A stretch of 64,000 bases of DNA from Lophium mytilinum (GCA_010093605.1 MU004189.1:1-64000), one strand, 5' to 3'; positions 1 through 24,987 are shown, counted from the stretch's first letter. The notes: a model not told the origin generated them from the letters alone. Numbers and translations: made by a program.

Positions 1-95
1 AACCCTAACCCTAACCCTAACCCTAACCCTAACCCTAACCCTAACCCTAACCCTAACCCTAACCCTAACCCTAACCCTAACCCTAACCCTAACCC
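1..95. repeat. Telomeric repeat (CCCTAA)n / (TTAGGG)n, chromosome end
   Basis: About 16 perfect CCCTAA units from base 1, ending abruptly at ...aacccc gtgctagc. Confidence 0.99.
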
Positions 96-114
96 CGTGC
101 TAGCGGGCGACCAA

Positions 115-600
115 TAGTACAGTATAGAAACATCGAGTAAAATTTCGTTACGCGTACTGTATACTTACTAGTAAGCGTATAGTATAGAAGCATCTACTAA
201 AATCTATAAACGCGTACTATATACCTATAAGTAAGCGTATAGTATAGAAGTATCTACTTAAATTTTATTATGCGTACTATATACCTACTAGTAAGTATAT
301 AGTATAGAAGTATCTACTAAAATCCCTAGATGCGTACTATATACCTACTATTAAGCGTATAGTATAGAAATATTTAGTAAAATTTTATTAGGCATACTAT
401 ATATATTTATCTTAGTATATACTATAGAAATATTTATTAAGGCTTTATTAGGTGTACTCTATACTTATATATTAGTATATAGTATAGAAACATTTTTATT
501 AGTCTTATTAGGCGTACTATATATCTATATACTAGTATATAGTATAAAATACTTCTTTAAATTCTATTAAGTATATATCTATTTTAATATATATTATAGA
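115..600. repeat. Subtelomeric 60-bp tandem satellite, ~8 copies, RIP-diverged
   Basis: AGTATAGAA-like start recurs at 121, 181, 241, 301, 361, 421, 481, 541; copies differ mostly by C>T/G>A transitions. Confidence 0.93.
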
Positions 601-3600
601 AATATTTTAAATTATAGTATAGTATTCTTACTAGAAGGCTTTTTATAGAGATTCTTTTAATTATAAATTTATATATTTTTTTTATATATATATATTATAC
701 TAATATTTTTTATAGGGCCTTTATAGAAAGCCTTTCTATAGTAACCCTTATATTACTATAAAAGTAATTATACTTTCTACTTACTATACTTCTAATATAC
801 TTCCCCTACTATAATCTAAATTAAGTAAGTATAAATAAGTTTCTATTATATATCTCTCTATACTTCTAATAAAAATAATAGTTTTTATCCCCCTCTCTTA
901 TCTCTATCTCTCTTTTTCCCTCCTCTAATACTTTTTCTAATACCCTCTTTCTTCTCTCTAATACTTCTTCTAACTTTATTACTATTAACCGCGTATACTT
1001 TTCTTTTACTATCTTTTTTCTAACTATATACCTTACTATTACTACTACTCTATTCTTCCCCCCTACTCTACTTTCTAGAAATAAACTACTTACTATAGAT
1101 AGCCCCGGCGCTAGCGTACTTAGCGCTGCCTACTAATACTCTAGCTATAGTAGCCCTAGCTTACTTACTAGCGCTAGTACCCGCGCCGCTATACTACCTA
1201 GTAGCTATACTATAGCGTTCTTAAAACCCTCTACTATTTTCTACTACTTCTTTATAGATATAGACTTATATATAGCGGGTAGCTATTTCTATATATAGCT
1301 AGAGTACTACCTCCCTTACTATAGCTATATAAGCCGCTTTCTTTAATAGATAGAGTATAGTATAGCTACTAAAAAGAGTATTCTCTAGGCGGTGTAAGGC
1401 TAGTAATAGCTTAGTAGAAAAGTAGGTGCTAGTTTTAAACTTAGTAAAGATTAAAATAGAAATTTTAGAGGCTTAGTAGAATTCTATAAAAATACTAGTA
1501 AAGTTTTTCTAGAGTTTCTTAAAAGTAGTAGTAGTAGAAGTTAAAGTTAAAGTATATTTTTTAGTTTTACTAGGGGTAGAGACTATACCTAAGGCTTTAA
1601 AAGAGAAGAAAAGAGTAAGGCTAAAAGTAGAGATAGCTTCTTTAGCTTCTTTCTTAGAGGTAAAGGGGCTAGTAGTAGTAAGAGAGTAGAGGGAGCTAGT
1701 AGTATAGAGAGTTAAAGTATAGTTTTAAAAGAGTAGAAAGGTATTACTATTAAATAAAAAGATAGATTAAAAAATAGTAAGGGCCTAGTAGTACTAAATA
1801 AAGAGCTAGGTATTTACTAATAAGTATATAGAGATAGAGATAGATTAAAAAGTAAATTAGGCTTAGACTCTAGTAGTAGTAATAGTAGCTTTATACTACT
1901 TTTTAAACTTATTAATACTAAGAAGATTTTATAGCATACTTAGGGTACCTAAAATAGAGCCTCTATATATCTAATCTATTAATAGCGGGGTAGAGTTCTA
2001 ACTACTAAGGGGAGCTATAACCTCTATCTTTCTTTTCTTTTTAAAGCTAGAAAGTAGTATAGTAATTAAGCTTAGTATAAAGAAAGAATAAGAATAATTA
2101 TTACTACCTACGCTAGTATATATATAAGGTTAAAGGCTAGCCTAAGAAGGCTAAGATAGAGTACTAGTTTAATCTATATAAGCTAGGGTAGCTATAGCTA
2201 CTCTACTAGAAGTTATTCTTTAGTACTTAAATAGAAGAGACTCTATATTTATGCATAGCGGGCTAAGTTTATAAGAGGTAAAGTATATTATAGCTTATAG
2301 TTATATAATAGAGCTAGAGCCTATTTTAATTTCTATCTCTTAAATAATCTACTAAACTTTATACTCTTTACTATCTATTAGTAAATTTAAGCTAAAGTAT
2401 AAAAGTCTTATTATAGTATAATAACCTTTATATAAGAAGGCGGCGTATTAGATAATTTCTAGTTAGCCTTTTAATATCTATATTATAGTAGATAACGCTA
2501 GCATAGTAACTATACCTTAAAGTAGCTTTCTTTCTATAATATCTATAATTTTAGGGCTCGCAAGTTAGTAACACAGTAGTAGTAGTAATAGAAGATAAAT
2601 CTTTAGATTTTACTATAGTAGTAAAGGGTAAACTAGTACTATTACTAGGGGTTAGGTCTAGAGGCTCCGCTATAGTAGAAGAAGATAAGACTAATAGTAG
2701 AAGAGTAGAGATAAAGCTATTAAAGAAGAAAATAAGAGTAAGGTAAAGTAAAAGAGTAAAGCCTATTAGATAATTTCTGCATAGGCGGCGTAGAGAGCTA
2801 GAGTATAGTTCTAGAAGAGTAGAAACGCGTTGCTATTAAAGAAGAAAATAGGTTAGGAGATAGCGAGGGCCTAGTAGCGCTAGATAAAGAGTTAGGTATT
2901 TGCTAATAAGCGCGTAGAGATAGGGATAGATTAGAGCGCTACTACTCCTATCTAAGGTTTAAATTTAAAAGTAGATTAGGCCCTACTACTTCTACTCTCT
3001 AGCTATAGCCTTAAACCTTATTTATATAGCTCTTGCCTTCTTCTCTTCTATATTAATCCGCAAGCGCAGAAGCTTCTTATTCTTAGAATTATTCTTAAAA
3101 AACTTATAGTATCTAGGCTACTTATAAGGCCGGGCTTAATCTTAATACTAGGCTTAATCTTTATATTAACTTTATCGGCTAGTTTAGGCTTAATATTAAT
3201 ATTAGACTTAGAAGGTAGGGCGCTATCTCTAGTAGCTTAGAATAGGGGGTTAGCATAGTTATAGAGAGTTTAAGACTTAGTTATAGTAGGCTGCATATTA
3301 AGAGTAGTATTAGTAGGCGTGCCTAGGCTATTACTAAAGAGGGAACCTCTATTTTAATTCTAGATAGTTGCAAGAAGTACTTCTCTCTAGGCACGGATGC
3401 AGGTAGGGTTAGCAGTATCCTCCGCGGTAAGCAGTTTAGTTATATAGGGTTAGTCTATATTAGCTAGCTTAGAAGTTATTTTAGAAATAAATAATAAGAA
3501 CTTCTCTCTAGCGTTTTATACAGCGAGATCCGCGGCATTACTAGGTATATTAGGGTTAAGAAGAGGGTTCTAAGTAATAGTACCTAAGCCTATTAGTGTG

Positions 3601-5299
3601 CCTATTATAGCGGTACTATTCTTAGCGTACTACTCTCCTAAGTTAGTTATATAGGTATTTCTATGGCCTACCGGCTTTAAAACTTTATATACTATTAAAC
3701 TATCTCTCTAAAGTACTTTAAATATAATTAAGAGTCTCTTCTATACTAGTTCTAGCTATTAGTTTACCTATAGCTATAGTATAAAGAGAAATAAGCTAAA
3801 GAAGTAAAGGAAGAGAGGAAGAGTAAATTAGGCGGGCGCTAAAGTAATGCAGGGTATAGTTATATAAACTGTATATTATAGGGACCTACTAGTCCCGCCT
3901 AAGGTAAAATATATATATAGTATAGTAATAAAATAAAACTCTTAGAGCTACTATTTATATATAGTATATAGAGTTAACCTTTAAAGGTTAATTATAAGTA
4001 TAGGTATAATATAAGAGGTTAGCATATAATATACTAAGATTAATAGAAACTAGCGCATTAAACCTTTTTTTAACTACTATCTACCTCTTATAGTATAGCA
4101 GCAGCCCACGCATAATACTATATATAAGTCTTAATTAGTATACTATATACGTCCTTTCTAGAGCGTTCCGGCGGATATTTATAAGATAAGAAGCGGCCTA
4201 ACCTAATATAGAGACGGCTGCAACCCTAAACTAGGCTAAAGTATATAAAATATAGCCCGGCATACTAAGGTTAACGCGTAGTAGCATAGTAACTCTAAAC
4301 GCTAAGAATAATATTTAGTAGGGGTAGATATATCTACATCTGCCTAATATATATATCCTAATAGAGCAGTTAGCTTCTTTTCTTACTACGCCTAATACCC
4401 TGTCTAGGCGCAAGGTTGCAAATACTACCCTAAATTTAGTTGCAAGAAGGAAGCTTATACAGCTAAAGCGCTTATTAAGATAGCTATAAGAATAGAAGTA
4501 AAGAAAAATACTAGAATAAAAGAGCAGTTCTATTTATAATATAGAGACTATTTATAACTATAAGAAAGAGGAAAGTTATATTAAAAGCAATAAATAGTAA
4601 GACTATAACCCCTTAAGAATTACTATCCTTACTAATAATAAGCAGGTCTAAATACATTACTAATAAACTAGAAAGTACAACTATAACACCTAAATTGCCT
4701 TCCGCCGCCTAGTACGTAGAAGACTTAATAATAACACGTGTAAATAACTCTTCTTCTAGTTAGTTTAAATATTATATAATAATATACGCTTTAGGGAACT
4801 ATAGGCAGAATAAAGTTATATATAGCGTGTTAATAGATAGAGTCTATAGAGAGGACTTAGCCTAGCTATATAACTAATATTAGTAAAAAGAGTTAAATTA
4901 TAGGGTATATAATAGTAGATTCTTTACTATAAAAAAGATAGGGAGCATATACTAATAGTATAGATATAATAGAGCGGCATTAGAATATAATTACCCTCCC
5001 TAACTATATAAACTATAGCGGATAAGACCGCCCCCTATAATATAGATAAATAAAATAAATATTATATTACGCATAAAATACGTAAGGCATAGTTATAGTA
5101 GTAAATATTACGCTATATTCTATAGTTAAGTAAGCCGCTATCTAGAGGCTAAATATAAACTAGAAGATTTTAAGAGTATAAAGTATACTACTACTATAGA
5201 GTAGTACTAACTATTAGAGGGTAAAGAATAGAACGCAAGTAAGAAATTAGAATAGTAAAAAGTTAGCAGTACTAAGTAAGTAGGTGCAAACTAATAGCA

Positions 5300-8200
5300 A
5301 GGAAAGTAGTCCTAATTAGAACTGTTAGAAAGAAAAAGAAAAAGATATTAAGAAATACTAAACTAAATTTAAAAAGTAGGGTAAGGGCCTTTATAGAAAG
5401 CCTTTCTATAAAGACCCTACTAGTTATACCTTACTATTAGACTTTTCTAGCGCTATACTAGTCCCCTCTAATTTACTACTATTCTCTTTACTATTAGAGT
5501 TAGTATCTATACCTAATACCGCGGGCGGTTAGCTAATATTAGAATTATTCTTCTACCTATATAGGTCTATTTTTAGTCTAGTAGAGTTTATAGACTTCTA
5601 TATAGTAGCTTTCTTCTTAGTAGCCTTCCTTTTATGCTAAGGGCGCTACTTAGTAATCTCTTTCTCTATTATATACTTATACGGACGATATATAAGGGAT
5701 TTAGATATAGAGTCTTTCTTAGCTACTTTATCCTTCTTTATAGTAGGCTTCTTTTTTATACCTTAGTACTTCTAACTCTTATTAGTATTACTAGAGGATA
5801 TAGTCTTTAAGGTTAGCTACAAGGCCCCTTCTATAAATTCCGGCGGGTTATCTAAGTTACTACTATAGTTACTGTTACGCTTAAAGGCAACTTTAGATAG
5901 CGTAGTATTAAAATCTAGGTAATTATTAAGATACCCCCTATTTTACTTATTAGTCTTAGACGGGACGTTCTCTATATTAATGTTAGGGGTTTTAACATTC
6001 TTCTTATTCTACTTATTACTCTTAGTCTAGTTATTATCTATATTAACGTTAGCTTTTAGTAGTAAATAAAAAACTAGATTATCTATAGAATCCTGCAAGA
6101 AGATAGTAGATATTCCGCGCTGCCTCTTCTTCTATATATTAGGTAATAGGATAGGGTCTATAGAAGGGGTCCTAATAAGGCGTCTATTAAAGGTGCTAAG
6201 AGGGCTAGAAGGTAGAGTTAAAGTAGGTTAACGGGCGGAAGTAGAAGCTACTATAATAGTTAGTACTTAAGTAATATAATAGGCAATACTAAAGGGCCCT
6301 AGTAGAAAGGCTTCCTAAAAAGGCTCTAGGATAAATTCTTACCTATATACTTTGCAAGGAATAAAGTATTATTCTTATACTCTTTACCTTTAGAGTTATT
6401 ACTATTTAGCCTACTAAAAGGGTTATCGCTGTCTATATTACTAAAAATAGCGGGTACTTAATATAAAGAGTTATGCTCCAGCCTATATTAATAGATAAAA
6501 GGGGTATAAGCCTTTCTAGTAGCGCTCTTTATAGGGGTGGGCATATTAGATTTAGTAGAATCTAAGTCTTTAACTATAATAGCAGACTTAAAGTTAGGCT
6601 TGCGCTTCTTAATAGCAGCCGCTAGTGTAGTACTAGCTTTACGCTTCTACTTTAAAGCTTTACTATTTTATTACTCTAGTATCTTTAGCTTTAGCTTTAG
6701 GGTGGCTTTTACTATAAAACACGGATTAGCAAAGTATAAAGAGGCAAGTAGGGCCCTAGTAGAAAGCCTTCCTACTAGAACCTATAAGGGTAAACTTACT
6801 ACTTACAGAATAACGCTTAAGCCTTAAACCTAGCTTATTAATACGCGGTTTCTTAGGCGCTCTACTCGCACCCTTCTCCTACTCTTCTTCTAATTCCAAT
6901 TTAGTAAATTTATACGCTTATTCTTCTTAGAACTTATTACTAAACCCACTAGACTAAAAAGTTATATTACCTTGCGTAAGGGTTATTAGAAATATAAAAA
7001 TATCTTATAGGAAGTTAAAGCGCTTAATATATAATTCTACTAGTATATTTAAAATATCTATTTCGCCTATAATAAGGCGGGGTGCAATACTCTTATTATT
7101 ATAGATTACCTACGCATACTAGCTATCTAGGGTTAGCTTTTCCTTAGAGGTCCCCTCTACCTTAATCTAGTTAGTATTTAACGCAGCAGCAAGACTAGAA
7201 AGCGCTATCTATACCTAGCGCAAGAGAGTAAAGGCATTAAATGTGTTCTAGATAAAGAACGCGGTTACTATAATAGTAAACTTCTAGCTAATCCTATATA
7301 AACGCGCTATTGCCTGCTTCTTAATCTAAATAGAGCCTATAGGGTTAAAAAGATATATATTATAATAAGTAGACTGCAGATTAAGCCTAGCTCTATTAGC
7401 CTAGTAACTAGTAATAAGAATCTTTACTTTAGAGTTAGGGTTGTTAAATAACAAGATAAGGTTATTCCGGTTAGTAGTAGAGAGATTAGAGGCTAGTATA
7501 TAAGTATCTATTTTATAATAGTTAATAATCTTAGTAAGAATTATTTACTTATCTAGGTAGTTAGTTTAGATAATAACCTTCTCTATACGCTTAATAATAT
7601 TATTAGCTAAATAGCATAGTAGTACAGCTACTTTAGGGGCATTATAGATAAAAAGGGTAATAATATAATAAAAGGGTGTAGACTTTACTTTAAAGTCTTT
7701 CTAATTAGGGTTAGTTTAAACGTTCTTATTCCGGGCAATTTGCTTTATTATGCCTCGCAAAACGTCTATTTCCTTTAACCAGTAACCGCTATTATTCTTA
7801 AGAGGGATAATTTTCAGGCCGTCCTTAATCTTATTACCCTCTAAATTTAAAACCTTCTCTCGCGGATATGCTATTATAGCGCGCTTAGAGTAGACTAAAA
7901 ATAGTGTAGTACTTATAAGGTTAAGAGTACGCATAGAGTATATATTAAATGCATAGGTATACTAGCCTATGCAGTTCTTAGTAGAAACTATTAATAACTT
8001 AAGGTAGCTTAGCGATTTATTAGTATAGATAATATAGCCTAGTTTTATAGGCTGTAGCTTAATTACTTACGTAACTAACCGCGGAAGTAATCCTCTAATT
8101 TAGGTAGCAGGATTAGTAGAATTATTTAGGTATATAGAAGGGTATAAGCAAGCAATTATATACTTACTAAAAATTAAGCGCAAATAAAGCCCCTGTATAA

Positions 8201-11100
8201 TCCTAGAGAAATATTAGAAAATTAAAGTAAATAAGAGGAGAGATAAGGGCTCTAGCCGGAAGCCTTTTTACTGGGGCCCTTTATATAATAACTTACAGGT
8301 TAAATAAAGGTAGAATAAAATTTTTAAAAGCCTTATATATATACCGGAAAATTACACCTAAATAGTTATTAGAAAGCTTAAATAGATTATTAGTACCTAG
8401 AATAAACTTAGCTTTACCGGGTTTTAAGCGGTATGTGCGGAATTATAGATACTTATCTCTTAGTTTTATAAAAGATATATAAGTAGGTATATTAGTAATA
8501 CCTATATATAGCAGGGTCCCACTATAGAGTATAGTAAAGTCTAAGTAAAGCTATAACGTAGTTAGGTAGAGATTTACTTAGTTGCTTTTAATAAGCTAGC
8601 ACTTATCTATAAATTAGATGTTAAAACAGCTACTTAAGAGACCGGGCTAGGTGGAGCTTAGATAATATTTAACCTAGTTCTTTAGCTTAGCAAGATTATT
8701 ATCGCTATACTACTTTAATGCAGGCTAGAAACCGTGCTAACTAGCTATTACCTAATAGCTGGCGATTATAATACTCTTAGCATTTATCTTATTTTTAGTA
8801 TTAAATAAGAGATAGTCCCTAGTTAAGATGTTATATAGAAACATAGTGCTATAGAAAGTAACTTAGCCCTTTAATAAATAGATATAGAGCTTAAGTTTAG
8901 AACTAAACTTTATAAGTTTATTTACTATTTAGTATACTAAAACGGGAGGCATAAAAAAAAGGAAGGGCTTTACCAGCCCGGGGTCTTTCTTATCTGCAAC
9001 TTTGCGCTGGCGCTTAGTAATAAGCTATAATTAAATTAGTAGATGCTAAGAGAAACTATTAGGGGGGTAGTAGAAAGGCTTTCTATTAATACTCTTTAAA
9101 GAGAAATTACTTACATATCTAATAAGGGTAGCCATTAAAAATATCTTTCTAATACTAACCTTATCTATAATTAAAGCCCTACTAAGAAAGCCTTTCTATA
9201 TAATATAGTATATATAGTAAGCCCCAGTAATCTACTACTACCTTAAGTAAATATTGCTATTTATTATAATAAGGCGGGGTTCCTAATAGTTATAAATGCG
9301 TAGGGCCTTTATTACTTCTTTAAGGTTATCTAGCTAATAGGCTTTATTAGTTATTAAAAGGCGGAGTGTACTTTATATTATAAGATCTGCCGCGGTTAGT
9401 ATAGTAAAGGGGATAATATCCTTTATATTAATAGCGGTAGCCCTTATATTAGCCTTTATATCTTAGGTATATTTAATACTATCTAGATTAGTATACTTAT
9501 CCTTATTTAGATCTACAGCGCGCATATTTAGGTACTATTTAATAGTATATATAAAATCTTCTACTATCTATCTAATTACCTAATATGCGTTGTATTAAAA
9601 CTTTAATAAGTTCTGGTTAATTATTACTCTAGTGCGCTTAGCATGCGTAATTACTAACTTAAGCTTCTATTTTATAGTGCCGGTAATATACTTAGCGCTA
9701 GTAACATTAATATTGCCTTTCTTCTTATTAACTAGGTTTGCAGTAATTTCCTCTTTAGATAACCTCTAGATAGGGTTATCTACGTTAACCTCTATATTAA
9801 TAGCCGCGAGTTCCTCCTTAGTAAAATAAGAGGGCGACTACTAATAGGGAGGCCTAGAAGGGCCTTAACAGGAAGGCTTTCTATTAATATTTTTACTACT
9901 ATAAGTAATAGTTTTAGCCGGGGTCTTAGGTGCCGGTGCTAGACTAAGCTTTATTTTTTAAAGAATATTCTATATCTTAATTTAGTTCTTAGTATAGGCG
10001 GTCCTGCTAGCTTAAAACAGGCCACTCTTAAATTCTATATTTTTCTTTAATTTAAAAAAGATTCTAAGCGCTTTATTATTAGTAATATTAGCGCGGTTAT
10101 ATAAAAACCTATTAAACTGCTTCCGGTAGTAATTAAAGCATTAACTAATAAATTAAGCTACCTAATCTATAGGTTTATAGTTATCTATCTTAGGCTAAGG
10201 AGTAGTATATCGCTGTAGATTATATAACTCGCCAGTCTTAAAAGCGTTTAGAATAGTAGTAAAACTAGCCCCTTAATTCTAACTATATATAGCGCGCTTT
10301 AGGTCTAAATATCTATCCTTATACTTATTTTAAATTGCTTAGAAATTAGGCTTAGCTAGAATTACTTTAAGTTCTGCTTTTATTTAACTATAAAGCTTAG
10401 CTAACTTTATTCTGCTAGCATACAGCGTGTTTACTAAGGCCTATAACTTCTCTAACTCTTTATCTTTTCTACTACTAGTAACTAGCGCTTAAAGCTTTTC
10501 TTACTCTTTATTAGAGTTTTTAGAGATATTAGAGTTATTACTATAGTTATTACTATCTAGATAAACTACTTTACTATTCGCTAATGTAAGCGTCTCTAGA
10601 TCTATTGCAGTAGCCGGCTAATTGCGCTTTAAATTAATATAGGCCTTAACCCTTAATTTAGTAACTAGTAGAGAGGTAGAATTTAGATCTTCTAGTACTT
10701 TAGAAGAAGTAGATAGTTTCTTATAGCTATTTACTAGGTTAGTTACAGGTAATATGCGCAGGAATGTAACCTTTACTACTACTTTACTAGGGTTCCTATT
10801 ACTTAAGATATTTATAGCTAGCCTATTAATATATTAGCTTATCTTAAATAATAGAAGAAAGAAGGCAGGTAAAGGGCCCTAGTAGAAAGGCTTTCTACTA
10901 AAACCCTTTATACTATGCCGGGTATTTTTAGTATTATTATTTTCTTAATATTTTCTGCCGCCGCATCTTTAAAATTAAGGTAGACTAATCTACTAAGACT
11001 AGTAAAGGGCCCTAGTAGGAAGCCTTCCTGTAATAATTCTTATAATACGCTTACCTTACTCTACTCTTAGAGAAATTGTAATGGAATAAACCTATTAGCA
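5300..11100 (-). pseudogene. RIP-inactivated, intron-containing SNF2/SWI2-family helicase/ATPase gene (core ~7,240-9,180; outer limits uncertain)
   Basis: Minus-strand translation gives RALIIDKVSIRKI (~9,140-9,180; de-RIP GALIxDEVGIGKT, motif I), KPFLFFMPPVLVY* (Ia), FIDKC*LIKS (8,596-8,607 core; DECQLxKS, II), SGTLL (8,512-8,523; SGTPL, III), ARLNLQ (AGLNLQ, V) and KQAIARLYRIS*K (EQAIARLHRIGQK, VI, ~7,280-7,325). Order and spacing fit SNF2. GTAAG...CTAAY...TAG introns at ~9,046-9,114 and ~8,203-8,296. Confidence 0.85.
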
Positions 11101-11148
11101 GAATTAGCTATAATATAACTTAATTTTACCTACTAGATAGTAAACTTA

Positions 11149-11780
11149 NNNNNNNNNNNNNNNNNNNNNNNNNNNNNNNNNNNNNNNNNNNNNNNNNNNN
11201 NNNNNNNNNNNNNNNNNNNNNNNNNNNNNNNNNNNNNNNNNNNNNNNNNNNNNNNNNNNNNNNNNNNNNNNNNNNNNNNNNNNNNNNNNNNNNNNNNNNN
11301 NNNNNNNNNNNNNNNNNNNNNNNNNNNNNNNNNNNNNNNNNNNNNNNNNNNNNNNNNNNNNNNNNNNNNNNNNNNNNNNNNNNNNNNNNNNNNNNNNNNN
11401 NNNNNNNNNNNNNNNNNNNNNNNNNNNNNNNNNNNNNNNNNNNNNNNNNNNNNNNNNNNNNNNNNNNNNNNNNNNNNNNNNNNNNNNNNNNNNNNNNNNN
11501 NNNNNNNNNNNNNNNNNNNNNNNNNNNNNNNNNNNNNNNNNNNNNNNNNNNNNNNNNNNNNNNNNNNNNNNNNNNNNNNNNNNNNNNNNNNNNNNNNNNN
11601 NNNNNNNNNNNNNNNNNNNNNNNNNNNNNNNNNNNNNNNNNNNNNNNNNNNNNNNNNNNNNNNNNNNNNNNNNNNNNNNNNNNNNNNNNNNNNNNNNNNN
11701 NNNNNNNNNNNNNNNNNNNNNNNNNNNNNNNNNNNNNNNNNNNNNNNNNNNNNNNNNNNNNNNNNNNNNNNNNNNNNNNN
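11149..11780. other. Assembly gap (N run)
   Basis: Run of n. Confidence 1.
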
Positions 11781-11799
11781 CTCTTTATATCTTATACTA

Positions 11800-14700
11800 A
11801 TTACTTTACTATCTTTCTTATTAATAATTCTTCTTTATAACGCCGCCCCTACTAGTCTACCTATTAATACTTAAATCTATATACTCCTTAGAACTCTTCT
11901 ACTTAAGCCTTATTCTTCTAGGCCTCTTACCCCGAGTCCTCTAAGTCCTCTATTTCTAAGCTGTAGTTACCTAAACTCTCTTTATACTTATACTCTTTAT
12001 CTAATAACTAACTACTTATATCCCCCTCTTACTCCTTCTATATTACTAAATAATTCCGGAATTCTTTAATTATTAGAATCCTGCCTAAATAAGCCCTTAG
12101 GCTATTTAGTGTATAGTACTTAAACCTAAGCTAGATATATTTTAGATTAACTTAACCTCTAGGGCCTATAATATTATCCTCTATTATTATTATCTTTAAC
12201 TTTCCTAGGCTTTCCTAGGTTATATTCTATACTTCCTTTATAACTACGTCCATGCTAAGGTTAACTACCCCTCCTTAAGCCTATTCTTTAATATATTAGC
12301 TTAGTTAGGCTACCTTATAGTAGTAGCTATTTAGTAGTTGCATATAGATCTACTATATATTTATAATTATATCTCTTTCTTTAATATTATCTTATATATC
12401 TTTAGAGTTGTTTTATTTAGCTTAACGCGTAGTTAAAATTTTATTGTTATTATATCTTAAAAGAACCTAGAGTAATAAGGCAGCTCTTACTTATAGATTA
12501 TTAAGGAATTATTCTACCGTTTTTAGTAACGCTTTATTTCTAATTATTACATTTAATCTTCGCAATTTTATGCGGAAGGGACTATTATTCTATTTTTAAG
12601 TTTCTGCAGCTAGATCCGTAATATTAAATAGCGGCTAGACTTAATTAATCTAGCATCTAGTTAAGTGCCTTAGATAATTTATATTACTATTTCTAGCTAT
12701 ATTCTATATGTAGGCGTAGCTTACTATAAGTTCTAACTTTCTATATAGCTTTATAAGCATATTAGAATAAAGCGTAACTATAGATCTATTTAAAATACTC
12801 TTAAGAAATTAGTTATATAGTTCTTTACTCTTCTATTATATCTTAGTATTTCTATCTTCTTCTATATACTATCTACTTAGAAGCTTATATATATTAGTAT
12901 AGTATACCTTAATAATAAGCGCAGCTGCCTTACCTATTTATGGCGGTGCTAATTGCTAATCTTTTTACACTTTAGTCCTATTTTCGCGTTAAATAGCTAG
13001 CGTGTATTATGCTATAATACTATACTATAGATACTGCATCTCTATATTCTTTCTAGTAAGAGATACCTAAATCTAAGCTTTAGTAAATATAGCTTAGAAT
13101 TAATTTCTAAGGCCGGCTTGCAGTTAATTAACGCCTTAAGGGCTAAGTTGTAGGGGCGTTATTATCTAATCTAAGTACTCTAACTTTAGCTAAGCTATGC
13201 CATACTTCTTAAGGGAGTTTAATAACCTAAGGCTATATAAGGTTATAGGATTCCGGGGGTCTTTTTAATTTATCTACTCTTTTTTCTATAGTACGGATAA
13301 TTAAGTGGGATTACTATATCTAGCAGTAATTTGCGTAAGGCGGATATAAAGAGATACTAAATAACTATTTACTAGCTATTTATCTAGTATTACTACATGC
13401 CTAGTATTACGCCCGGGAGTAACCTAAAGAGATAGTACCTAGAAAAGAAATACCTAGTAATTAAGGTTTATAATAGTAAAGGCATTAACTTCTTCTATAG
13501 AAAGAACCTAGTAGGGGTAATAAGGCTTACTACTATTATCTAGCCTATTCTTTATAGTAAATTTAGGACTTACGCTTTCTTTAAGTTACTTAAGTATAGT
13601 AAGAAGTACTTGGAACTCGGTTTAAACCCTATAGAATAAGTATCTATCTCTCTAGAGTATAGTATAGTGGCGTTAGAGAATAGTAGCAAGACTATTCTAA
13701 AGCTGTTTTCTTTTTAATAATCCTCTAGAGCTACCTGCCGCTTTAAACCACTGCTTAATTATTTTAGTTAAGAATGCAAGAGCTTCTAGTTAAGTATTAT
13801 AAAAGGGCGTAATATTCTTAATAGGTAACTTAAGTATAATCTTATTACTATTATAGATTTTATTATATGCTATACTACTAATATAGCTATAGTTACCTAC
13901 TTAGAGCTCTACCGTTAAAGATAACGCGCCCTAGATAAGATAGTAGGGGTATAATATTATATAAATCTTTTCTTTTCCGCTATTATAGAAGTAAATAGTC
14001 TAGTAGTTATTACAGCTAGTTTTGCATAGAAGGGTAACCCCGGTATCTAGCTAATTAGTAGTTAAAATATCTTTATATCTATAGTTAATCTATATCCCCT
14101 TATCTAGCATATTAATTAGGTTTTTATTAAAAGTAGTAGTTAAAGTACATAGTAGCTAATCCCTACTTTAAATTATACTTAAGGACTTATATGCTATTTT
14201 TAGATTATAACCCGAGACTACTAGGAATACTCCTTTAAATAAATCTTTAGGTATAGTATCTATTCCTGTAAAGTTTTCTGCGTTATAAAGAACTTAGTCC
14301 TAGAATTCTTAGAGTTAATACTATAGAATTATATACTTAGTATTAATATAAGAGTCTCTAGATAATATTATATATTTTTCTTTCTTAATGCTTACTTTAC
14401 CCTATATAATATTAAAACTGTATAGTATATACTACTACTTATCGGGTATTAGAGTATACTTTACTGCAGGTAAGATAATATTATTAAGCCAAGCTGCTTG
14501 CATTATATCTAGTAGATGTAAAGTATCGCCCTTCTACTTATTTAGTGTTAGTATCTAGGGGAAAAATATATAAGTTTTAAATTAATACTTATACCTATAC
14601 CCTATATAAAGCTACTTTATTATATAGAGCTTATGGCCGCGTATTATAATATATTAGTTTTAAGTAATACTTTAGAGAAAGAATAGTTATAGAGATAGTA

Positions 14701-15000
14701 AGAAGTATAAATTATAGGCCGCTAAAGTAGAGATGCTAATAATAACGCTATTAATATTATATACTTGCCGGATTTTAATCTCTTTATTCACTATAAAGCT
14801 AGCTTTAAACCTTATAAAACTAAGCCTTAGAGTTTCTATATTACTAGTTTCTCCGCTTAACATTAATTTCTATGGGACATTATTAAAGTTATTAGGATTA
14901 TCCTCTCTCTATAATAGCTCTAGTTAGCTTATTAGATAGAAGGCTGCATTAGCTGTAATAGGCTCTTATTAGAAGGAAAGGTTCTAAGCTAGAAGAAAGC
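11800..15000 (-). pseudogene. RIP-inactivated long ORF of unknown function, possibly a mobile-element protein
   Basis: Long coding-like minus-strand frames with RIP-type stops: KIRQVYNINSVII (de-RIP RQVYDIDS), FKTYIFFP, AWLNNIILPAVKYTLIPDK**YILYSFN (AWLDDIILPAV...QQHIPYSFD). Confidence 0.55.
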
Positions 15001-15132
15001 TAGTAACTTAGCTAAGGGATCTGCTCTAAGGAACTATTATATAGTTACTTACTATATTATAATATTAGCTACTATATTATTTAAATAGAAAGAGTTAAGA
15101 TATATAGTAAGTATACTAGACTTCTAACGCTA

Positions 15133-15672
15133 NNNNNNNNNNNNNNNNNNNNNNNNNNNNNNNNNNNNNNNNNNNNNNNNNNNNNNNNNNNNNNNNNNNN
15201 NNNNNNNNNNNNNNNNNNNNNNNNNNNNNNNNNNNNNNNNNNNNNNNNNNNNNNNNNNNNNNNNNNNNNNNNNNNNNNNNNNNNNNNNNNNNNNNNNNNN
15301 NNNNNNNNNNNNNNNNNNNNNNNNNNNNNNNNNNNNNNNNNNNNNNNNNNNNNNNNNNNNNNNNNNNNNNNNNNNNNNNNNNNNNNNNNNNNNNNNNNNN
15401 NNNNNNNNNNNNNNNNNNNNNNNNNNNNNNNNNNNNNNNNNNNNNNNNNNNNNNNNNNNNNNNNNNNNNNNNNNNNNNNNNNNNNNNNNNNNNNNNNNNN
15501 NNNNNNNNNNNNNNNNNNNNNNNNNNNNNNNNNNNNNNNNNNNNNNNNNNNNNNNNNNNNNNNNNNNNNNNNNNNNNNNNNNNNNNNNNNNNNNNNNNNN
15601 NNNNNNNNNNNNNNNNNNNNNNNNNNNNNNNNNNNNNNNNNNNNNNNNNNNNNNNNNNNNNNNNNNNNNNNN
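15133..15672. other. Assembly gap (N run)
   Basis: Run of n. Confidence 1.
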
Positions 15673-18049
15673 TATCTATAGAGTATTCTAGAGGGTAAGG
15701 ATAGTATATACGCCTATATATATATATAGTATAGCTATAGGTTTAAGAAACGCTTTATAGAGATAGCGTATAGCGGGTAGAATTTAGCCTAGAGCTCTAT
15801 TATTATTATTTATAGCTTACTAAGGTATTCCTACGCTAGAAGGTAGTAATAGAGAGGGCAATACCTCTCTAGCATCTAGAGGCGGTAGTAATATAGGTAT
15901 ATAAGGAGATAATATAGAAGATGCAGGTAATAGTAACTCTAATACTGCCTCTTCTACTTCTTTATCTACTTAGGCTACTTCTTTATTTACTTTACTTTCT
16001 TTAGCCGCTTCTTCTTCTTTTTTAACTACTGCTCCCTTAATAGTCTATATAATAGCATGCTTACTACTATTACTCTAATTTTACTCTATAGCTTCTATTA
16101 ATTCTATATTACTTTAAATTTTAGGTATATATTAGGCCGCTCTTAACTTACTAGAGTATATACTACTACTAGTAGACTACTAGGTATAAGAAAGTTATAT
16201 TAGTTAAATAGGTTAAGAGGTTAGAGGAGTAAGAGAATAAGTACTACTATAAGTAGCCCGCCCTAGAGTAGAATATTAGGTGGGTTTAGTAGATAGAGAA
16301 GAAGTAGTAGAATAGATACTACTATAGATAGACTACTATAGAGAAGTATATTATATAGGTTATATAGGTTAGATAGATAGAGAAGGAATAGTAGAATAGG
16401 TACTACTATAAGTAGACCGCTACGGAGAAGTATATTACATAGATTAAGTAGAGGTAGAAGGTAATAATTCTTCTATTAAAATAGGTTCTACTTAAGTTTA
16501 TTAGAACCTAACTATAAATACTAGAAGATTATAAAAGATATACTAATTATAAGTTATATAATAGTTTTCTCTAAAGGCTTCTAAGGTGCAATTAGTTATT
16601 AAAAGGGCGTAGGCGCAGGGCGGGTAGAATAAGGGGCCCTAATATTTATACTAGAAAGACCTCTAGAGTTTTTAAAGATAATTAGAAATAGATCTAGAAT
16701 AGAAGTAGAAGTAGGCTTACTAGCCTCTTCTACTACAGCTATTTAGTCTATAGCCCTCTTCTTTTTATCTCTCTTGCGTTGGTTTAAATCCACTATTAAA
16801 CGTAATTTAGCTGCTTTTTACTCTTCTTTATTCTAGTACTTTTAGGGGCGTTCTATGCTAACTACTAGGTATAGTAGTAAGGGGGATAATAGTTTAGAAT
16901 ATAGAGCTAAGAAGTAGAAAGCGGTTAAGGAGTATAATTAGTTAAAAATAAGAATTTATTAATATTCTTATTATAGGGCTTACTCCGCCTAACCCGTTTT
17001 AACACCCCTTATAGATACTGCCACTCGGTTAAGGTTACTAGGAAAGGGCCCTAGTAGAAAGGCTTCCTGCGGTAGCCCTATTAATTACTTTATCTATAAA
17101 TATTATATAAACTATATTCTACCCTTTACTTTATATATTTTATTTAATGCAGCTAAAATTTCTATTATATAAGAATACTATCTAGCAGTAACCTATACTA
17201 AGGCAAGGCTATTATAATATAAAACTCTTTCTATTATATCTATTACCCTCTATAGGCACCTACTACTAGGACTTCGCCTTTTCTATAATGCTTTAAATTT
17301 AATTGCGTATACTATATATAGTATTATAGCTTTATTATAGTATCTTAATATCTAGAAGTTATTATATATAGTAGTAGAAGGCTGCTTAATTATAGAGCTA
17401 TACTCTATGCTACTAGCCGCTCTCTTTTCTTACCCTCTGCACCTACCTAGAGCTATAACTATAGCCTATAAAATATTTCTAAATTGCTAGAATACTATTA
17501 TATTGCATAATAAGTAATTTTCCTTATAAATATCTTTAACCTTATATTATAGTAGTTCTATATAGCGCTAGTTAAGGTCTTTATTAAGTATAAGGCTAGC
17601 ATTATACTAAACTCTTTAAGTAACTTCTATTATTTAGAATCTTACCTCTATATATAACTGCTACTACTACTACAGCCTATATATTAATTCTAAGTTAATA
17701 GATCGCTATTGCATTATATATTATATATAATTCTTTATATATTTCTTCTATACTATATTATAGTAGTTGCATGTAGTAGTAGTTGCACTAATTTTTAAGC
17801 GCGAGGCTATTCTTACGCTAAACCCTTTAAGTAATTTCTATTCTATACCTGCGCACCCTGCGGCCTCTCTATACCTACCTTAAGCTACCACTACAGCTTA
17901 TAAATTAAATTAAAGTTAATAGAACGCTATTATATTACGTTCTAAGTATTATTCTTTGCATGCATACTCTATTTTATATTATAGTAGTTAAATGCGGCGG
18001 TGCAAGGTTATACTACACGTAATTCTTAAAGGTTAATTTTCTCTATATT

Positions 18050-21000
18050 AAACTTGCTTCTCCCTACCTAATTTTAACCCTTTAGCCCCTATAATGTCCT
18101 ATTATTAAAGAACCTAATAATACTAAAGACTTCCCTTAGCTTAACTATAATAGAAAATCTCTTCCTTCTAAACTAGTTTTACTAGATAAACTACCTAAAT
18201 ATAATATCTAGTTTATATTTATATACGTCTATTCTACTATAGTAAAATAAGATAAGGGTGTAGTAATAACTATTACTTTATAAGACTTTAAGTAACTAGA
18301 CTAGCCTAATAAAATAGATAAGTAACACGCCTACAGGCGCTAGGTAGTAAATCTTGCAGGCGTTACTATAGAAGATTACTATTAATTTAAGAAAAAAATA
18401 ACTAAATTACCTTATACTAAAGATTAGCTATAGTAGAAAGTTCTACCCTTTTTCTACTAGATTTTAGATACCTTTAATCTATAAGCTATAAATAAACTAC
18501 TACTATATAGGCCTAGCGTAGACTATACTATTAACTTTAAAGACCTAAATATAAAACCTTCTATCTCTTACTAATACAGCCTCTCTTATAATAAGCTGCG
18601 GGCCGTTAAAGCCTATATTAATAAGATGCTTAGAAAGAGTTTTATTTACTCTAGCACATTACTATTTATAGCGCCTATTATTATTATCTATAAGCTAGGC
18701 GGAGGACTCTATATTTATATTAATTACTAATTACTAAATAAAATTATAATTAAAGATAGGAACGCCCCTTCTCTCTTATATAATATAATTATGTAGCTTT
18801 ATAAAGCTAAGATATACTCTATCTTTAATATTATTGCCGCATTTAATAACATCCATATTAAGAATAGTAACTAGCCTAAGATAGCCTTTTATACTTAATA
18901 TAGCGTCTTTAAGTTTAATATTATACCCTTTAGCTTATATAACGCCCCCGGTATATTCTAGTTATTTATTAACTCTATTCTATAAATATATTTTAATATC
19001 TACTATATAGCCTATATAGATAATATTCTTATATATAGTAATAATAAGAAAGACTATAAAAGAAACTATATAAACATTCTTACTATACTATATAACGCTA
19101 GCCTCTATCTTAATATAGATAAGTATTACTTCTTAGTTAAGAGGGTTAAATACCTAGGCCTAATTATTATACCTGATAGAATAGAAATAGACCCCGCTAA
19201 AGTTAGTACTATTTAGAACTAGAAGCTACCCCGTAATATTAAGGATATATAATTATTTCTTAGTTTTTATAACTTTTACTAATAGTTTATTATAGAATAC
19301 TTATAAATTACTATACTACTTACTAAGCTTATAAAGAAAATAATAGAATAAGGTAACTTTCCGCTACTTACTAATAGCTTAGCAGCGTAAGCCTTTAAAA
19401 AGCTTAAAGCCTTCTTTCTTTTAGCGCTAGTTCTTACCTATTTTAATCTAGATTTAGATTATATTCTTAAAACTAATACCTCTAACTATATAGTAGCCGC
19501 GATTCTTTTATAATAGGAACTAGATAGAATTCTATGTTCTATTACCTTTCTATTAAAAAAGATAACTCTAGCTAAGTATAATTATAAGATCTATAATAAG
19601 GAATTACTTGCTATTATATAGGCCTTTAAAGAATAGCGCCCTAAACTTATAGATATTATTAACCCTACGCTTATTTAAATAGATTATAAGAACCTAGAAT
19701 ACTTTATATTATTAAAGTAGCTTAATTACTGCTAAGCCTATTAGGCTAAATACCTCTTACAGTTTAATTTTATTCTAAACTGGCAACTAGGTAAATAGTT
19801 AACTAAGCCTAATAGCCTTACTTATAGGCCTAGTAATATTCTAGATAATCTAAATAACTCTAGAACTATACATTAAATATAGACAGTTTTAAAAAAGAGA
19901 AACCTACTAGAAGGAATATACTAAGCCCTCTAGCTCGCCAGTATACTTCTTAATAAATAGAAAGTATTTATTATCCAGCTTACTAAGCTAATATATAAAG
20001 TTATAGAATAATACCCTATAGATATTCTATATATTATTCTAGTAGCTAATAGAATAAGAGTAAAAAAGCGCTTAACTAAGGTTATAGCTAATTATAGTAA
20101 GTTAGATAAAGATCTATAGAATGCTGCCCCTAAAGTTACTATACTAATTACCCCTAAACCTATAGATCCTACCGCTAAAGAAGAAGCGCTAAAGGTATCT
20201 AAGCCTAGTAATAAGTTAGATAAGAACTTACTAGGAAATTATACTAATAATACTACTATTTAGTAGATTAATTATATATACGCAGAGAATAATATTCTCT
20301 AATATATTATATACGCTAAAGAGATAGGTAAATAATAAATTCCTCTTAAACTTATTTAGAAATAAGAAATTAAAATTAAGCTTAGCAACTATAAAATCTA
20401 TAAAAATAGGCTATTTATTAACAGCCGCCTATATATTCTATATAACGCAAAGCTCTATATATAATTAATTAAGGAAGCCTATAACTCTCTCCCTAGAGGC
20501 TATACTAAAAGAAACTCTCTCTACTATTATCTCTCCTTCTAGTACTACTAGCTAGGTATTATAAACTCTATTACTATATATATTAACGCCTACCTAATAT
20601 ATAAACGCACTAAGGTCTATAAAAATAGTAAATATAGCTTACTTAAGCTATTACCTATTCTAAATTAATACTAGACGGATATCTCTATTAACTTTATTAC
20701 TAAGCTGCCCCCTTATACTATTAAGGGCCGTATATACTAATACGTTATAGTAGTTATTAACTAACTTTCTAAAAAGTATAAGTTTATTCTACTAGACTCT
20801 ATAGAGCTAGAGGACGTTACGTAGGCCTTTATTAACTAGATCTAGCGCAAGAAAGGCTATCTAGACTATATTATATCTAACTATAGCGCGTAGTTTATAT
20901 TCTTCTTTTAGAAGCATCTATATAAGTATATAGAAATATACCTAAAGCTATCTACTATAGCCTATCTAGAGACTAATAGATAAACTAAAATTATTAACGC

Positions 21001-22514
21001 AGGCCTAAAGTAGTACCTGCGCGTATATATCTATTACTTATAAGATAACTAGGTAAACCTTATTACCTTTACTAAATTTAAAGTAAACGCTAATATTAAC
21101 TAGTCTACTAGAGTATTATCTTTTAAAGCTACTAAAGGCTATACGCCCTATAGTAGGCTAGAACTATTATTACAGGGTATTATTATTCTAGGACCTAAGC
21201 GATAAGGCGTTAATGTAGCTAAAAAGCTAGTTACCTATATTTATAACCTGCGCGAGTTTCTTAAAGGTAAACTACGCTAGAATTAGTTAAAGATAAAGAA
21301 GCTAGCTAACTAAAACCGTCTACCTACCCTAGAATTTAAGGTTAATAATATAGTTATACTTAATACTAAGAATATTTATACTATATAGCTAAGTAAGTCT
21401 CTTAACTATAAAAATCTTAGTCCTTTTTATATAACACGGGTTATTAATAATATAGCCTATAAGCTAGAACTTTCTAAATCTATAAAGGGAATCTTTCTAG
21501 TATTCTACCCCTAGCTACTTTATTAAATTAATAAGACGCCCCTTCTAGAATAATATCTAGAACCTCTACCTATACTTAAGATAAAAGAAGATAGCTTTAT
21601 AGAATAGTTCTATATTAATAAAGTTCTTAACTTCTAGTTTAACGGCCGCTAACTAGATCTATATATAGGTAAGAAGCCTTACTTAGTCTATAAGATAGCC
21701 TAGACTAGGTATAATAACACCCGGCCTAAATAAAAGCCCTATTAGAATACTAATAGTTATAATAAACTTCTTATAGAATACTATATAAAGCATAGTCTTA
21801 AAGTAGAACCTTATTTAATATTTAAAACGCCTAAATAGAAGGTTGCGAAGATAATAGATAAGAGCGTAAGCGCTGCCGCGGCGATAGTAGGCCTATAGAA
21901 TATTCTTAGCACTAGCCTAAGTAAGTATAAATAGCAACCTTATTAGGTAGCTAAGTTATTTTATAAGAAGGCTATTCTATATAGGTAATCTAAAGTAGAA
22001 CTCTAATAGGTAGAAGCTAATAATAGGCCTTAAGTTAATTTATATAGTCCGCTTGCAGTACTTAAGAATAACTATAATAATAAATATAAAAATAGAAAAA
22101 ATAGAAATAATAGAAATAATAGATATAGTAATACTATAGATAGTAAGTATATAAATAGTAAGGCTATATAAGTAGCTTAATAGAAATAGAATAGAAAGAA
22201 TAGAGAAGCTATAACTATAATATATTATAAGCCTTATAGAACTTTAGCTTTTAAAGAGGAAGGTAGTATTATAGTATAAACCTAGAATTATAATAATTAT
22301 ATACTAAGGTTATATATAGCCTCTTATATAACCTAAGTAAGACGCTAGCCTAAGGCGCTAGGCTGCGGCCTGTGCGCTGGTGTTAAACTATAACCTCTTA
22401 AGAGCTTCTAGCTCTCTCTCTCCTTCTTAGCTTAGATTTTTATAATAGTTAATATACCTTATTACTTATATTATATCGGCCCCCTATATATAGGTATAAT
22501 CTATTAATATAATA
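18050..22514 (+). mobile_element. RIP-degenerate, 5'-truncated Ty3/Gypsy chromovirus-type LTR retrotransposon (RT-RNaseH-integrase-chromodomain, 3' LTR)
   Basis: Plus frame: APIIIIYKLGGGLYIYINY (KPGGGLRxCVDY, ~18,670-18,730), AYIDNILIYS (YxDD at 19,013-19,024), KTNTSNY (ETDASDY, ~19,470), NYKIYNKELLAI, TDISINFITKLP (integrase, ~20,675), YKIA*TRYNNTRPK*KP (chromodomain, ~21,690-21,740), purine tract at ~22,252-22,266. Confidence 0.93.
22267..22514 (+). repeat. 3' LTR of the Gypsy element (RIP-mutated TG...CA ends)
   Basis: Starts TATTATAG right after the purine tract and ends TATAATA, consistent with RIP-mutated TGTTAC...GTAACA inverted termini; ~250 bp. Confidence 0.7.
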
Positions 22515-24730: not shown

Positions 24731-24744
24731 CTTCTTATAGCACA

Positions 24745-24956: not shown

Positions 24957-24987
24957 ATCTCTATTTATAGACCTTATACAATACTCC

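Follow-up and report, generated by a model that had tools for sequence, protein, structure and literature searches.

The first ~23.7 kb inside the telomere of a stretch of Lophium mytilinum DNA (GCA_010093605.1, MU004189.1:1-64000; 64,000 nucleotides, hereafter termed the window) form an AT-rich block heavily altered by repeat-induced point mutation (RIP). An earlier note, made from the sequence alone, had proposed that positions 96-18,050 represent one telomere-linked element, carrying a helicase of the SNF2 type rather than the usual RecQ type. According to the present analysis, the block is probably a mosaic of RIP-degraded repeat families, now or formerly present in many copies, which includes an amplified SNF2-gene unit with its own array of palindromes. 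The unit would measure ~5 kb (~6.3-11.1 kb, perhaps reaching into a run of N) and contain a single SNF2 gene of ~3.7 kb, the product of which is predicted to have combined a family-specific helical N-terminal domain with a two-lobe SNF2 motor, and to have carried neither a RecQ domain nor a RING. A 33-bp palindrome with the core GGAAG[G/C]CTTCC, found in the gene and its flanks, would be part of the unit itself. The remainder of 96-18,050 would represent other repeat debris, not demonstrably of the same element.

The gene on the minus strand belongs to the SNF2 family. A look-alike of helicase motifs V-VI was first spotted near 7,400 by reading translated frames, and a piece of 327 amino acids from this region (6900-7880, minus strand) matched the Pfam family Helicase_C at E=0.00099 (19.8 bits, under the cut-off of 23.5). 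Against the Protein Data Bank (PDB), all 15 matches of this piece at E<=10 were SNF2-family proteins, the top one being Rad54-like (9e-5). When the translation of 6900-7880 was searched by phmmer against 1.84 billion representative sequences, 174 relatives were obtained at E<=1e-3, including 21 at E<=1e-10 (best, 6.7e-37). Each of the top 20 carried an SNF2-rel_dom and/or a Helicase_C domain: SNF2-rel_dom was present in 18, while the two others, both short, contained Helicase_C only. In these relatives, Helicase_C scored above its cut-off.

A family profile, built as a hidden Markov model (HMM) from 30 full-length relatives, was run over 642 six-frame pieces covering the whole window. Its positions 268-561 were placed on 8105-7134 (E=1.5e-46) and positions 3-231 on 8997-8311 (E=5.8e-23). 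No other match occurred among the 642 pieces. The profile finds one SNF2 copy in the 64 kb, and additional copies could be concealed within the two runs of N. With an N-terminal profile, positions 384-488 fell on 9444-9130 (E=7e-7) and positions 24-189 on 10557-9997 (E=5.5e-6). The Walker A motif (motif I), located within the 9444-9130 match, reads DKVSIRKI in the pseudogene. At the other end, tblastn with one of the family relatives (P0002) aligned 7805-6924 (3.6e-33). The pseudogene spans ~10,557 to 6,924 and is directed toward the telomere. Its N-lobe, which Pfam and PDB searches did not detect directly, is collinear with the C-lobe by the family profile. In a RIP-aware Smith-Waterman alignment with log-odds scores, the C part reached 80.5 bits versus a null maximum of 25-31, and the N-lobe was unconfirmed in this pairwise mode.

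In total, 47 in-frame stops were counted in 845 aligned codons, a minimum for the gene. From 10,557 down to 8,311 the gene follows a single frame, relative to which the C part (8,198/8,105 to 6,924) is offset by 1 nt. The stops, together with this frame change, identify a pseudogene rather than an intact, expressible gene. The frame change, located at the palindrome 8247-8279, could be an intron or an indel, and the gene may have been spliced, as the earlier note held. The rest of that description was borne out, both in the family and orientation of the pseudogene and in its distinction from RecQ: none of the Pfam and PDB searches made with the block gave a RecQ-type match, and the sole helicase found was of the SNF2 type.

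The database names of the relatives were absent or generic. Among 30 that were looked up (of 150), the entries read "hypothetical" or "SNF2 family helicase", with a single "putative DNA repair helicase rad5,16". These 30 originated from Eurotiomycetes, Lecanoromycetes, Dothideomycetes (Tothia), Sordariomycetes and metagenomes, and none was from Parastagonospora nodorum. Against solved structures, a full-length member matched DDM1 best (1.7e-17), followed by SWR1, Snf2, Fft3 and Rad5. No RING, HIRAN or other accessory Pfam domain was detected in the scanned relatives, the ESM Atlas returned generic SNF2 clusters only, and the viral contigs that were scanned contained no relatives. The clade is a divergent one among the SNF2-family ATPases, from the Pezizomycotina and without a named subfamily. 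In the genomes of the relatives, the gene was present mostly once per 90% cluster, except for fragmented copies in Microsporum audouinii. In that fungus, the cluster of one relative (P0021) comprised several partial models on contigs of 693-2,424 bp and one on a 260-kb contig, which hints at additional, poorly assembled copies of the SNF2 gene.

The conserved N-terminal block of the family (~160 amino acids) has a predicted all-helical fold, with a predicted local distance difference test score (pLDDT) of 80 and a predicted template modelling score (pTM) of 0.73. No structural relative of this domain was recovered, either by a PDB profile search (best E, 0.19) or by Foldseek (0 matches at E<=0.001). 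VIA-align gave a best Z-score of 5.3, at noise level for helical models, and its matches to the DNA-binding domain of JBP1/JBP3 (Z-scores of 4.4 and 3.8) provide no evidence of a relationship.

The second component of the proposed unit, the palindrome, was sought in purine/pyrimidine space, which is unaltered by RIP, using the idealised 33-mer GGGCCCTAGTAGAAAG[G/C]CTTTCTACTAGGGCCC and a threshold of <=4 mismatches in 33 positions. Eleven copies were found, beginning at 622, 715, 5385, 6294, 6751, 8247, 9062, 9860, 10874, 11007 and 17046. A twelfth, at 9174, has 5 mismatches, and all 12 are located within 622 to 17,078. No copy with <=4 mismatches occurs in 18-64 kb, i.e., in a Gypsy element and 40 kb of genic DNA, where the four matches with 5 mismatches are at chance level (0-5 in shuffled sequences). 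Within the window, the palindrome family is specific to the AT-rich block, in agreement with the earlier note. The sequences flanking the copies are unrelated to one another, so the copies are stand-alone units. Hairpin folding of the best copies gave z-scores of -3 to -5.5 (715, -4.1; 8247, -3.4; 10874, -5.5). Their distribution is uneven: 8 of the 12 lie in 6,294-11,039, which comprises the SNF2 gene with its immediate flanks and 28% of the block (binomial P=0.006). Over this interval the spacing is ~1 per kb, and the copies at 9860, 9174, 9062 and 8247 fall within the span of the gene. Rfam returned no match over 1-24,500, and four core 11-mers matched primers only in the literature searched.

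Relatives were also sought in metagenomes, where three loci were obtained (L001, L002 and L003). The first of these, of 8.4 kb and 49% GC, is free of RIP and contains a full-length homologue collinear with the SNF2 gene of the window. It carries the core GGAAG[GC]CTTCC eight times at <=1 mismatch, versus 0.15 expected, and none of 200 shuffles reached eight; several copies have palindromic arms (AGGG..TTTTC.core.GAAAA..CCCT). The 5' flank/start region and the N-terminal region hold two copies each, and single copies are located between motifs I and Ia (4264) and in the inter-lobe region. The remaining two, at the stop (6924) and 264 bp past it (7205), are analogous to the 3'-flank copies of the window, and the motif I-Ia interval contains a palindrome in both loci (4264 in L001; 9062 and 9174 in the window). 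The copy at 5453 of L001 is in-frame in the coding sequence, where it reads HFSEGFLKKL and aligns without gaps to the family profile, and those at 2709 and 3510 are within the open N-terminal frame. The palindrome core is conserved between the RIP-wrecked copy and this intact homologue from another organism. Because the intact locus has the same core at comparable places, the palindrome is assigned to the SNF2 gene unit. Its occurrence at similar places, partly inside coding sequence, implies a constraint that acts on the DNA or on the RNA, and represents the most interesting, and still unexplained, result of the analysis. The palindromes may be cis-acting sites of the unit, bound by a dimeric protein or forming hairpins.

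The flanks of L001 share no sequence with the window and contain no telomere repeat. Upstream of its SNF2 gene, L001 contains an inverted repeat of 206 nt (1493-1698 / 1785-1990, 82% complementary). Downstream, in 7970-8432, a 31-nt unit is present three times, together with a 12-nt tandem array and a perfect hairpin with an 11-bp stem (8204-8230).

Short palindromes that are dispersed at kilobase spacing, some of them in-frame in coding sequence, occur genome-wide in bacteria and organelles as Rickettsia palindromic elements (RPE) and as the GC-cluster palindromes of mitochondria. The palindromes of the window and of L001 resemble RPE in their presence at many sites, some in-frame, and differ from them in being limited to a single nuclear gene unit and the DNA around it, with a core that is conserved between distant loci. 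RPE-like dispersal in unrelated genes was not observed: neither the genic DNA of the window (40 kb) nor the Gypsy element has a copy with <=4 mismatches.

The SNF2 gene and the palindromes could be regarded as a new autonomous mobile or selfish element, in which the palindromes would be cis sites or RPE-like insertions and the N-terminal domain or the motor would aid its spread. This would accord with the multicopy status described below, with a palindrome array that is conserved in two distant loci and tolerated in-frame, with the confident predicted fold of an N-terminal domain that has no clear known relative, and with the derivation of the looked-up relatives from several fungal classes, without specific names. 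The explanation is nevertheless unlikely, in view of the Pfam scans, which detected no transposase, recombinase, nuclease or Rep domain, and the fact that no terminal inverted repeats (TIRs) or target-site duplications were seen, that L002 and L003 have no palindromes, and that the gene is mostly represented once per 90% cluster in the genomes of its relatives.

The multicopy status was assessed with contigs of two public runs of one sample (X1 and X2), aligned on 5,001-25,000 at >=80% likeness, which yielded 4,636 and 4,739 contig pieces, respectively. The X1 pieces comprised 1,133 of at least 99% likeness, 1,393 of 95-99%, 1,420 of 90-95% and 690 below 90%. Their differences were dominated by transitions (A>G 425, T>C 392, C>T 366 and G>A 331, versus 5-46 per transversion type), which is the pattern expected among RIP-diverged copies. 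The summed X1 depth ranged from 1,460 to 7,390, with ~1,460-2,460 over 5.0-8.3 kb, 2,960-4,000 over 8.3-11.0 kb, 3,600-5,800 over 11.7-15.0 kb and 6,400-7,400 over 15.7-17.7 kb. The Gypsy element had a depth of 2,700-4,300, compared to ~132 for a single-copy contig at 23,668-24,773. Every part of the AT block from 5,001 to ~23,600 has many genomic relatives, the abundance of which is uneven, ~5-fold, along the block. RIP requires repeated DNA, as the earlier note pointed out, and this DNA is or was multicopy.

These data bear directly on the possibility that an ordinary single-copy host SNF2 gene was hit only by RIP leaking from neighbouring repeats. RIP is known to spread from repeats into single-copy DNA beside them. 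The gene itself, however, is covered by thousands of transition-diverged contig pieces, its X1 depth over 7,002-9,002 is 2,270-3,600 versus ~132, and its RIP indices are as extreme as those of the Gypsy element; leakage is an extremely improbable explanation.

Contig joints were observed that link 6255 to both 17313 and 15675, position 20879 (in the Gypsy element) to 8151 (in the SNF2 gene), 10946 to 13876, and 15122 to 20611. With sides of ~20 nt at 80% likeness, these joints are hints only; if real, they place other copies in other contexts. A RIP-tolerant self-comparison in purine/pyrimidine space revealed no direct or inverted repeats of at least 50 nt that delimit either 96-18,050 or 6,255-17,313. 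Similarly, no long terminal repeats (LTRs) or TIRs were found in purine/pyrimidine space, and the segments at the joint sites were unlike each other, with scores within the null range. The repeats that were found by self-comparison comprised a satellite, a 153-bp direct repeat and two tandem arrays, and nothing longer that delimits the block.

The interpretation of the earlier note, in which 96-18,050 is one coherent multicopy telomere-linked element, analogous to yeast Y' or to the telomere-linked helicases (TLHs) of other fungi but with an SNF2 helicase, and recombined between chromosome ends, can be judged against these results. It would account for the position directly on the telomere, for RIP throughout and multicopy status from 5,001 onward, for palindromes that extend from 622 to 17,078 and end before the Gypsy element, and for an SNF2 gene that reads toward the telomere. 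Just one chromosome end is visible, however, terminal repeats are lacking, the palindromes are concentrated on the SNF2 gene, and, as weak evidence, depth differs ~5-fold along the interval. Moreover, the joints tie 6255, 10946, 15122 and 8151 to other partners, albeit weakly, and the intact homologue in L001 has neither a telomere repeat nor a flank in common with the window. We consider it quite unlikely that 96-18,050 is one element; nothing beyond its adjacency to one telomere is in favour of a single 18-kb telomere-linked element, which is not supported.

The preferred reading, a mosaic with an amplified SNF2-gene unit, has several points against it as well. The summed contig depth is no copy number, and the mechanism of amplification is not visible in the sequence. 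The left boundary of the unit would be one contig junction (6255) with short sides, and the right boundary would be hidden in a run of N. The palindromes at 622, 715, 5385 and 17046 lie outside the proposed ~5-kb unit, which may therefore be larger, or fragments of other copies may be present. With respect to L001, the exact positions of the palindromes differ (the window copy at 8247 corresponds to profile position ~235, and the L001 copy at 5453 to ~290), the arms in L001 are unlike those of the window, and good hairpins are formed by only 3-4 of the 8 copies. Finally, no palindrome was found in L002 and L003 (1.8-2.1 kb, C-terminal halves only), and the motif is not universal in the family. 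As to its history, the unit may have been amplified when chromosome ends, or AT-rich regions, recombined with one another; alternatively, it may have spread by a form of transposition that was not recognised. Amplification would have made it a target of RIP, by which all function would have been lost in the copy of the window.

Searches for additional genes or domains were negative. Six-frame Pfam scans of 96-18,300, with long translations throughout and short pieces over most of the interval, revealed no other domain. The short pieces covered 96-6,935 and 11,781-18,300 on both strands, 7,700-11,148 on the minus strand, 9,400-11,148 on the plus strand, and 6,936-7,699 in the SNF2 frame only. 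They gave nothing relevant, the sole match being DUF565 (E=0.2); in 748-6255, none of the 36 short six-frame pieces matched a Pfam family at E<=0.1. The long six-frame translations (~900-2,400 amino acids, with X at stops) likewise matched no family, in scans that recovered the Gypsy control. No Pfam family of transposases, recombinases, nucleases or Rep proteins was matched in any frame of 96-18,300, given that RIP lowers sensitivity and that some transposases have no Pfam model. A phmmer search of the PDB with the three minus frames of 7600-9700 produced no match, and word-based homologue searches on RIP-degraded queries produced one weak match in one case and none in the other. At <=1 mismatch, motifs I, II, III, V and VI were missed by strict SNF2 motif patterns as well as by a RIP-tolerant scan, the motifs used being too strict for a clade with DxVGxGKT and TATP. 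Long translations of RIP-degraded DNA in which stops are read as X were observed to give false negatives: the C-lobe was missed by them, was detected at ~1e-3 with the 327-aa piece, and reached 1e-46 with the family profile.

The second large open reading frame (ORF) of the earlier note was not recovered. No stop-to-stop frame in 96-23,500, outside the runs of N, exceeds 105 amino acids, and the best candidate (11,781-15,130, minus strand) has no relative in Pfam, PDB or word searches. Among the several degenerate minus-strand frames that had been reported, the SNF2 gene is the only one verified.

A precedent for an SNF2-gene repeat exists, and the conserved palindromes are the part without explanation. 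The RIP-affected repeat X3X3R8 of Parastagonospora (Stagonospora) nodorum SN15 is 26 kb in length (Hane & Oliver 2010, PMC3017866). According to the passages that describe it, in-silico reversal of RIP (deRIP) restored three genes for Rad5/SNF2-like helicases, one for a Rad6-type ubiquitin-conjugating enzyme and two of no assigned function, and the repeat was read by its authors as an endogenous gene region that had been amplified, and not as a classical transposon (PMC3017866). Compared by description, X3X3R8 and the block share a Dothideomycete host, a large multicopy RIP-affected repeat, and an SNF2-like helicase accompanied by unidentifiable ORFs. They differ in that the window has one SNF2 copy and no ubiquitin-conjugating enzyme was found in it, versus three helicases and such an enzyme in X3X3R8. 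In those passages, neither telomere adjacency nor palindromes are described for X3X3R8, and no further mention of the repeat was found in the literature searched.

The block could represent the local counterpart of X3X3R8, in the sense of an "endogenous gene cluster" that was amplified and that comprises Rad5/SNF2-like helicases, a ubiquitin-conjugating enzyme of the Rad6 type and ORFs of no assigned function. The same fungal class, the similarities in size, RIP, copy status and gene content that the published passages convey (PMC3017866), and the source annotation of one relative as "putative DNA repair helicase rad5,16" are consistent with this relationship. In contrast, a single SNF2 copy is present rather than three, and the relatives carry no Rad5/16-type RING. 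The ubiquitin-conjugating family UQ_con was not matched at E<=0.1 on either strand, in Pfam scans that also missed the SNF2 N-lobe at an equal level of RIP. The relationship is quite improbable. An existing catalogue entry, which the earlier note had named as a refutation of its proposal, is partly matched in spirit by X3X3R8, from another Dothideomycete and as far as the published passages describe it (PMC3017866). Broader still is the proposal that the SNF2 gene and its conserved palindromes form an undescribed fungal selfish unit, in which a gene for a chromatin motor bears cis-acting palindromic sites of its own, even within the coding sequence. Such a unit would multiply, possibly preferentially at chromosome ends, RIP-competent hosts would keep only AT-rich wreckage of it, and unexplained Dothideomycete repeats with helicase remnants, such as X3X3R8, would be the same thing; this we hold to be distinctly unlikely.

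Fungal chromosome ends are known for telomere-linked helicases of the RecQ type. A subtelomeric SNF2 gene that was first amplified and later ruined by RIP would add to the kinds of helicase gene that colonise subtelomeres. It would also provide another independent case, the second after P. nodorum, of the little-understood "SNF2-helicase repeats". The Y' element of yeast is a multicopy telomere-adjacent element with its own helicase-like ORF, and recombination copies it from one chromosome end to another. Its helicase is of a type other than SNF2, and Y' has defined ends, an autonomously replicating sequence and a uniform structure; no comparable unit structure is demonstrable in the block of the window. 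The TLH genes (Magnaporthe TLH, Ustilago UTASa, S. pombe tlh1/2, Fusarium TLH and P. nodorum X26) are members of the RecQ family, whereas the gene of the window is of the SNF2 family, with DDM1, SWR1, Snf2 and Rad54 as its best PDB relatives. TLHs are defined by their presence at several chromosome ends, and the gene of the window is known at one end. In P. nodorum, X26 is a subtelomeric RecQ repeat separate from X3X3R8, as stated in the passages on these repeats (PMC3017866). The window gene resembles the TLHs as a multicopy gene of a helicase superfamily at <=~10 kb from the telomere repeat, and in being RIP-affected, as are those of Dothideomycetes to judge from the passages on X26 (PMC3017866).

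Helicases are also encoded by the fungal DNA transposons Helitron, AcademH and KolobokH, which are named in PMC10799480. These elements have in common with the window a gene containing Helicase_C, and differ by a Rep or transposase domain and defined termini, none of which were detected here; the helicase of the window, unlike theirs, is a full two-lobe SNF2 motor. No description of an SNF2-type telomere element was found in the literature searched on telomere-linked helicases, Starships and AcademH. The features of the block are collected in Table 1.

Table 1. Features of the telomere-proximal part of the window (TRF, Tandem Repeats Finder).
Position	Strand	Feature	Evidence and remarks
1..95	.	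Telomere repeat (AACCCT)n, chromosome end	TRF period 6, 15.8 copies, 100% matches; sequence read
117..607	.	60-bp subtelomeric satellite	TRF 8.2 copies (~8 units), 77% matches; units aligned in register
622-654, 715-747	.	Two palindrome copies just inside the satellite	4 and 3 mismatches of 33
748..6255	.	RIP-degraded repeat DNA, origin not recognised	Includes palindrome 5385-5417 and direct repeat 1698-1850/2784-2936; 5,001-6,334 multicopy by contigs
6294..6783	.	3' flank of SNF2 gene, holding palindromes 6294-6326 and, near the expected stop, 6751-6783	Purine/pyrimidine scan
6924..8198	-	SNF2 pseudogene, C part: inter-lobe region, C-lobe (motifs IV-VI), C-terminal tail	HMM 1.5e-46; 14 stops in 324 codons
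8247..8279	.	Palindrome at the frame change	1 mismatch of 33; z=-3.4
8311..8997	-	SNF2 pseudogene, ATPase N-lobe (motifs Ia-III)	HMM 5.8e-23; tblastn with P0047, P0092, P0025, P0007, 1e-6 to 3e-5; 13 stops in 229 codons
9062..9206	.	Palindromes 9062-9094 and 9174-9206, around motif I, before motif Ia	Purine/pyrimidine scan
9130..10557	-	SNF2 pseudogene, N-terminal region: family-specific helical domain and Walker A	N-terminal HMM; palindrome 9860-9892 inside
10874..11039	.	5' flank of SNF2 gene with palindromes 10874-10906 and 11007-11039	0 and 2 mismatches
11149..11780	.	Run of N, 632 bases	Contigs from public runs extend past 11,148
11781..15132	.	RIP-degraded multicopy DNA	No Pfam, PDB or word-search match; X1 summed depth 3,600-5,800
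15133..15672	.	Run of N, 540 bases	-
15673..18300	.	RIP-degraded multicopy DNA	Arrays 16152-16460 and 17434-18002; palindrome 17046-17078; joints at 18300
18300..23800	+	RIP-degraded Ty3/Gypsy retrotransposon, neighbour	RVT_1 6.5e-14, RT_RNaseH_2 6.3e-14, RT_RNaseH 9e-11, SH3_Tf2-1 2.4e-5

The composition of the window changes sharply at the inner edge of the block. From 96 to ~23,800, GC content is 26-34%, TpA/ApT is 1.6-2.7 and (CA+TG)/(AC+GT) is 0.04-0.47, a RIP-type composition with extreme indices. Past 25 kb, GC content is ~50% and the indices are normal (~0.65-0.8 and ~1.1-1.5, respectively). Both gaps mentioned by the earlier note are present as runs of N, and contigs of the public runs continue beyond 11,148, so real sequence is present in at least the first of them. 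The palindromic satellite that had been described next to the telomere is a 60-bp satellite indeed, but its dyad symmetry is weak, as determined by self-match in purine/pyrimidine space and by comparison of the units in register, and "palindromic" is a generous description. The direct repeat pair at 1698-1850 and 2784-2936 measures 153 bp with a spacing of 1,086 bp, and its members are 98.7% identical in purine/pyrimidine space and 81% identical in real bases. They could be the ends of a small LTR-like element, or one resembling a terminal-repeat retrotransposon in miniature (TRIM), or else a local duplication with later independent RIP.

Two RIP-degraded tandem arrays, at 16152-16460 (units of ~84/159 bp) and 17434-18002 (~211 bp), directly precede the Gypsy element. 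Several contig joints, alternatives to one another, begin at 18300, which suggests a boundary between repeat families at this position. The Ty3/Gypsy element itself, which is outside the finding proper, served as the positive control for the domain scans (plus frame starting at 18200). The earlier note had placed Gypsy and Mutator-like element (MULE) sequences here; the former is identified by its reverse transcriptase, and no MULE turned up in scans of the window.

The GC-normal part of the window contains ordinary genes, which encode a GH3 beta-glucosidase, a RabGAP, MCM2, MAD1, a GH2 mannosidase and an EcKL kinase. MCM2 is located at 43865-46132 (minus strand; MCM domain, E=4.5e-103) and MAD1 at 49369-51621 (minus strand; E=2.6e-75). 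An MCM2 exon is 99% identical to the protein of Mytilinidion resinicola, the second-best match being 85%, which places the host as this Dothideomycete or a fungus very near to it. The occurrence of MCM2 and MAD1 just 44-52 kb from the telomere indicates that the gene-poor subtelomere at this end is short, ~24 kb. Exactly on the AT/GC boundary, at 23564-23614, an 18-bp GC-rich tandem repeat (GGGTTCTACCGGCGCCCG, 2.8 copies) begins a stop-to-stop frame of 388 amino acids on the plus strand (23564-24730).

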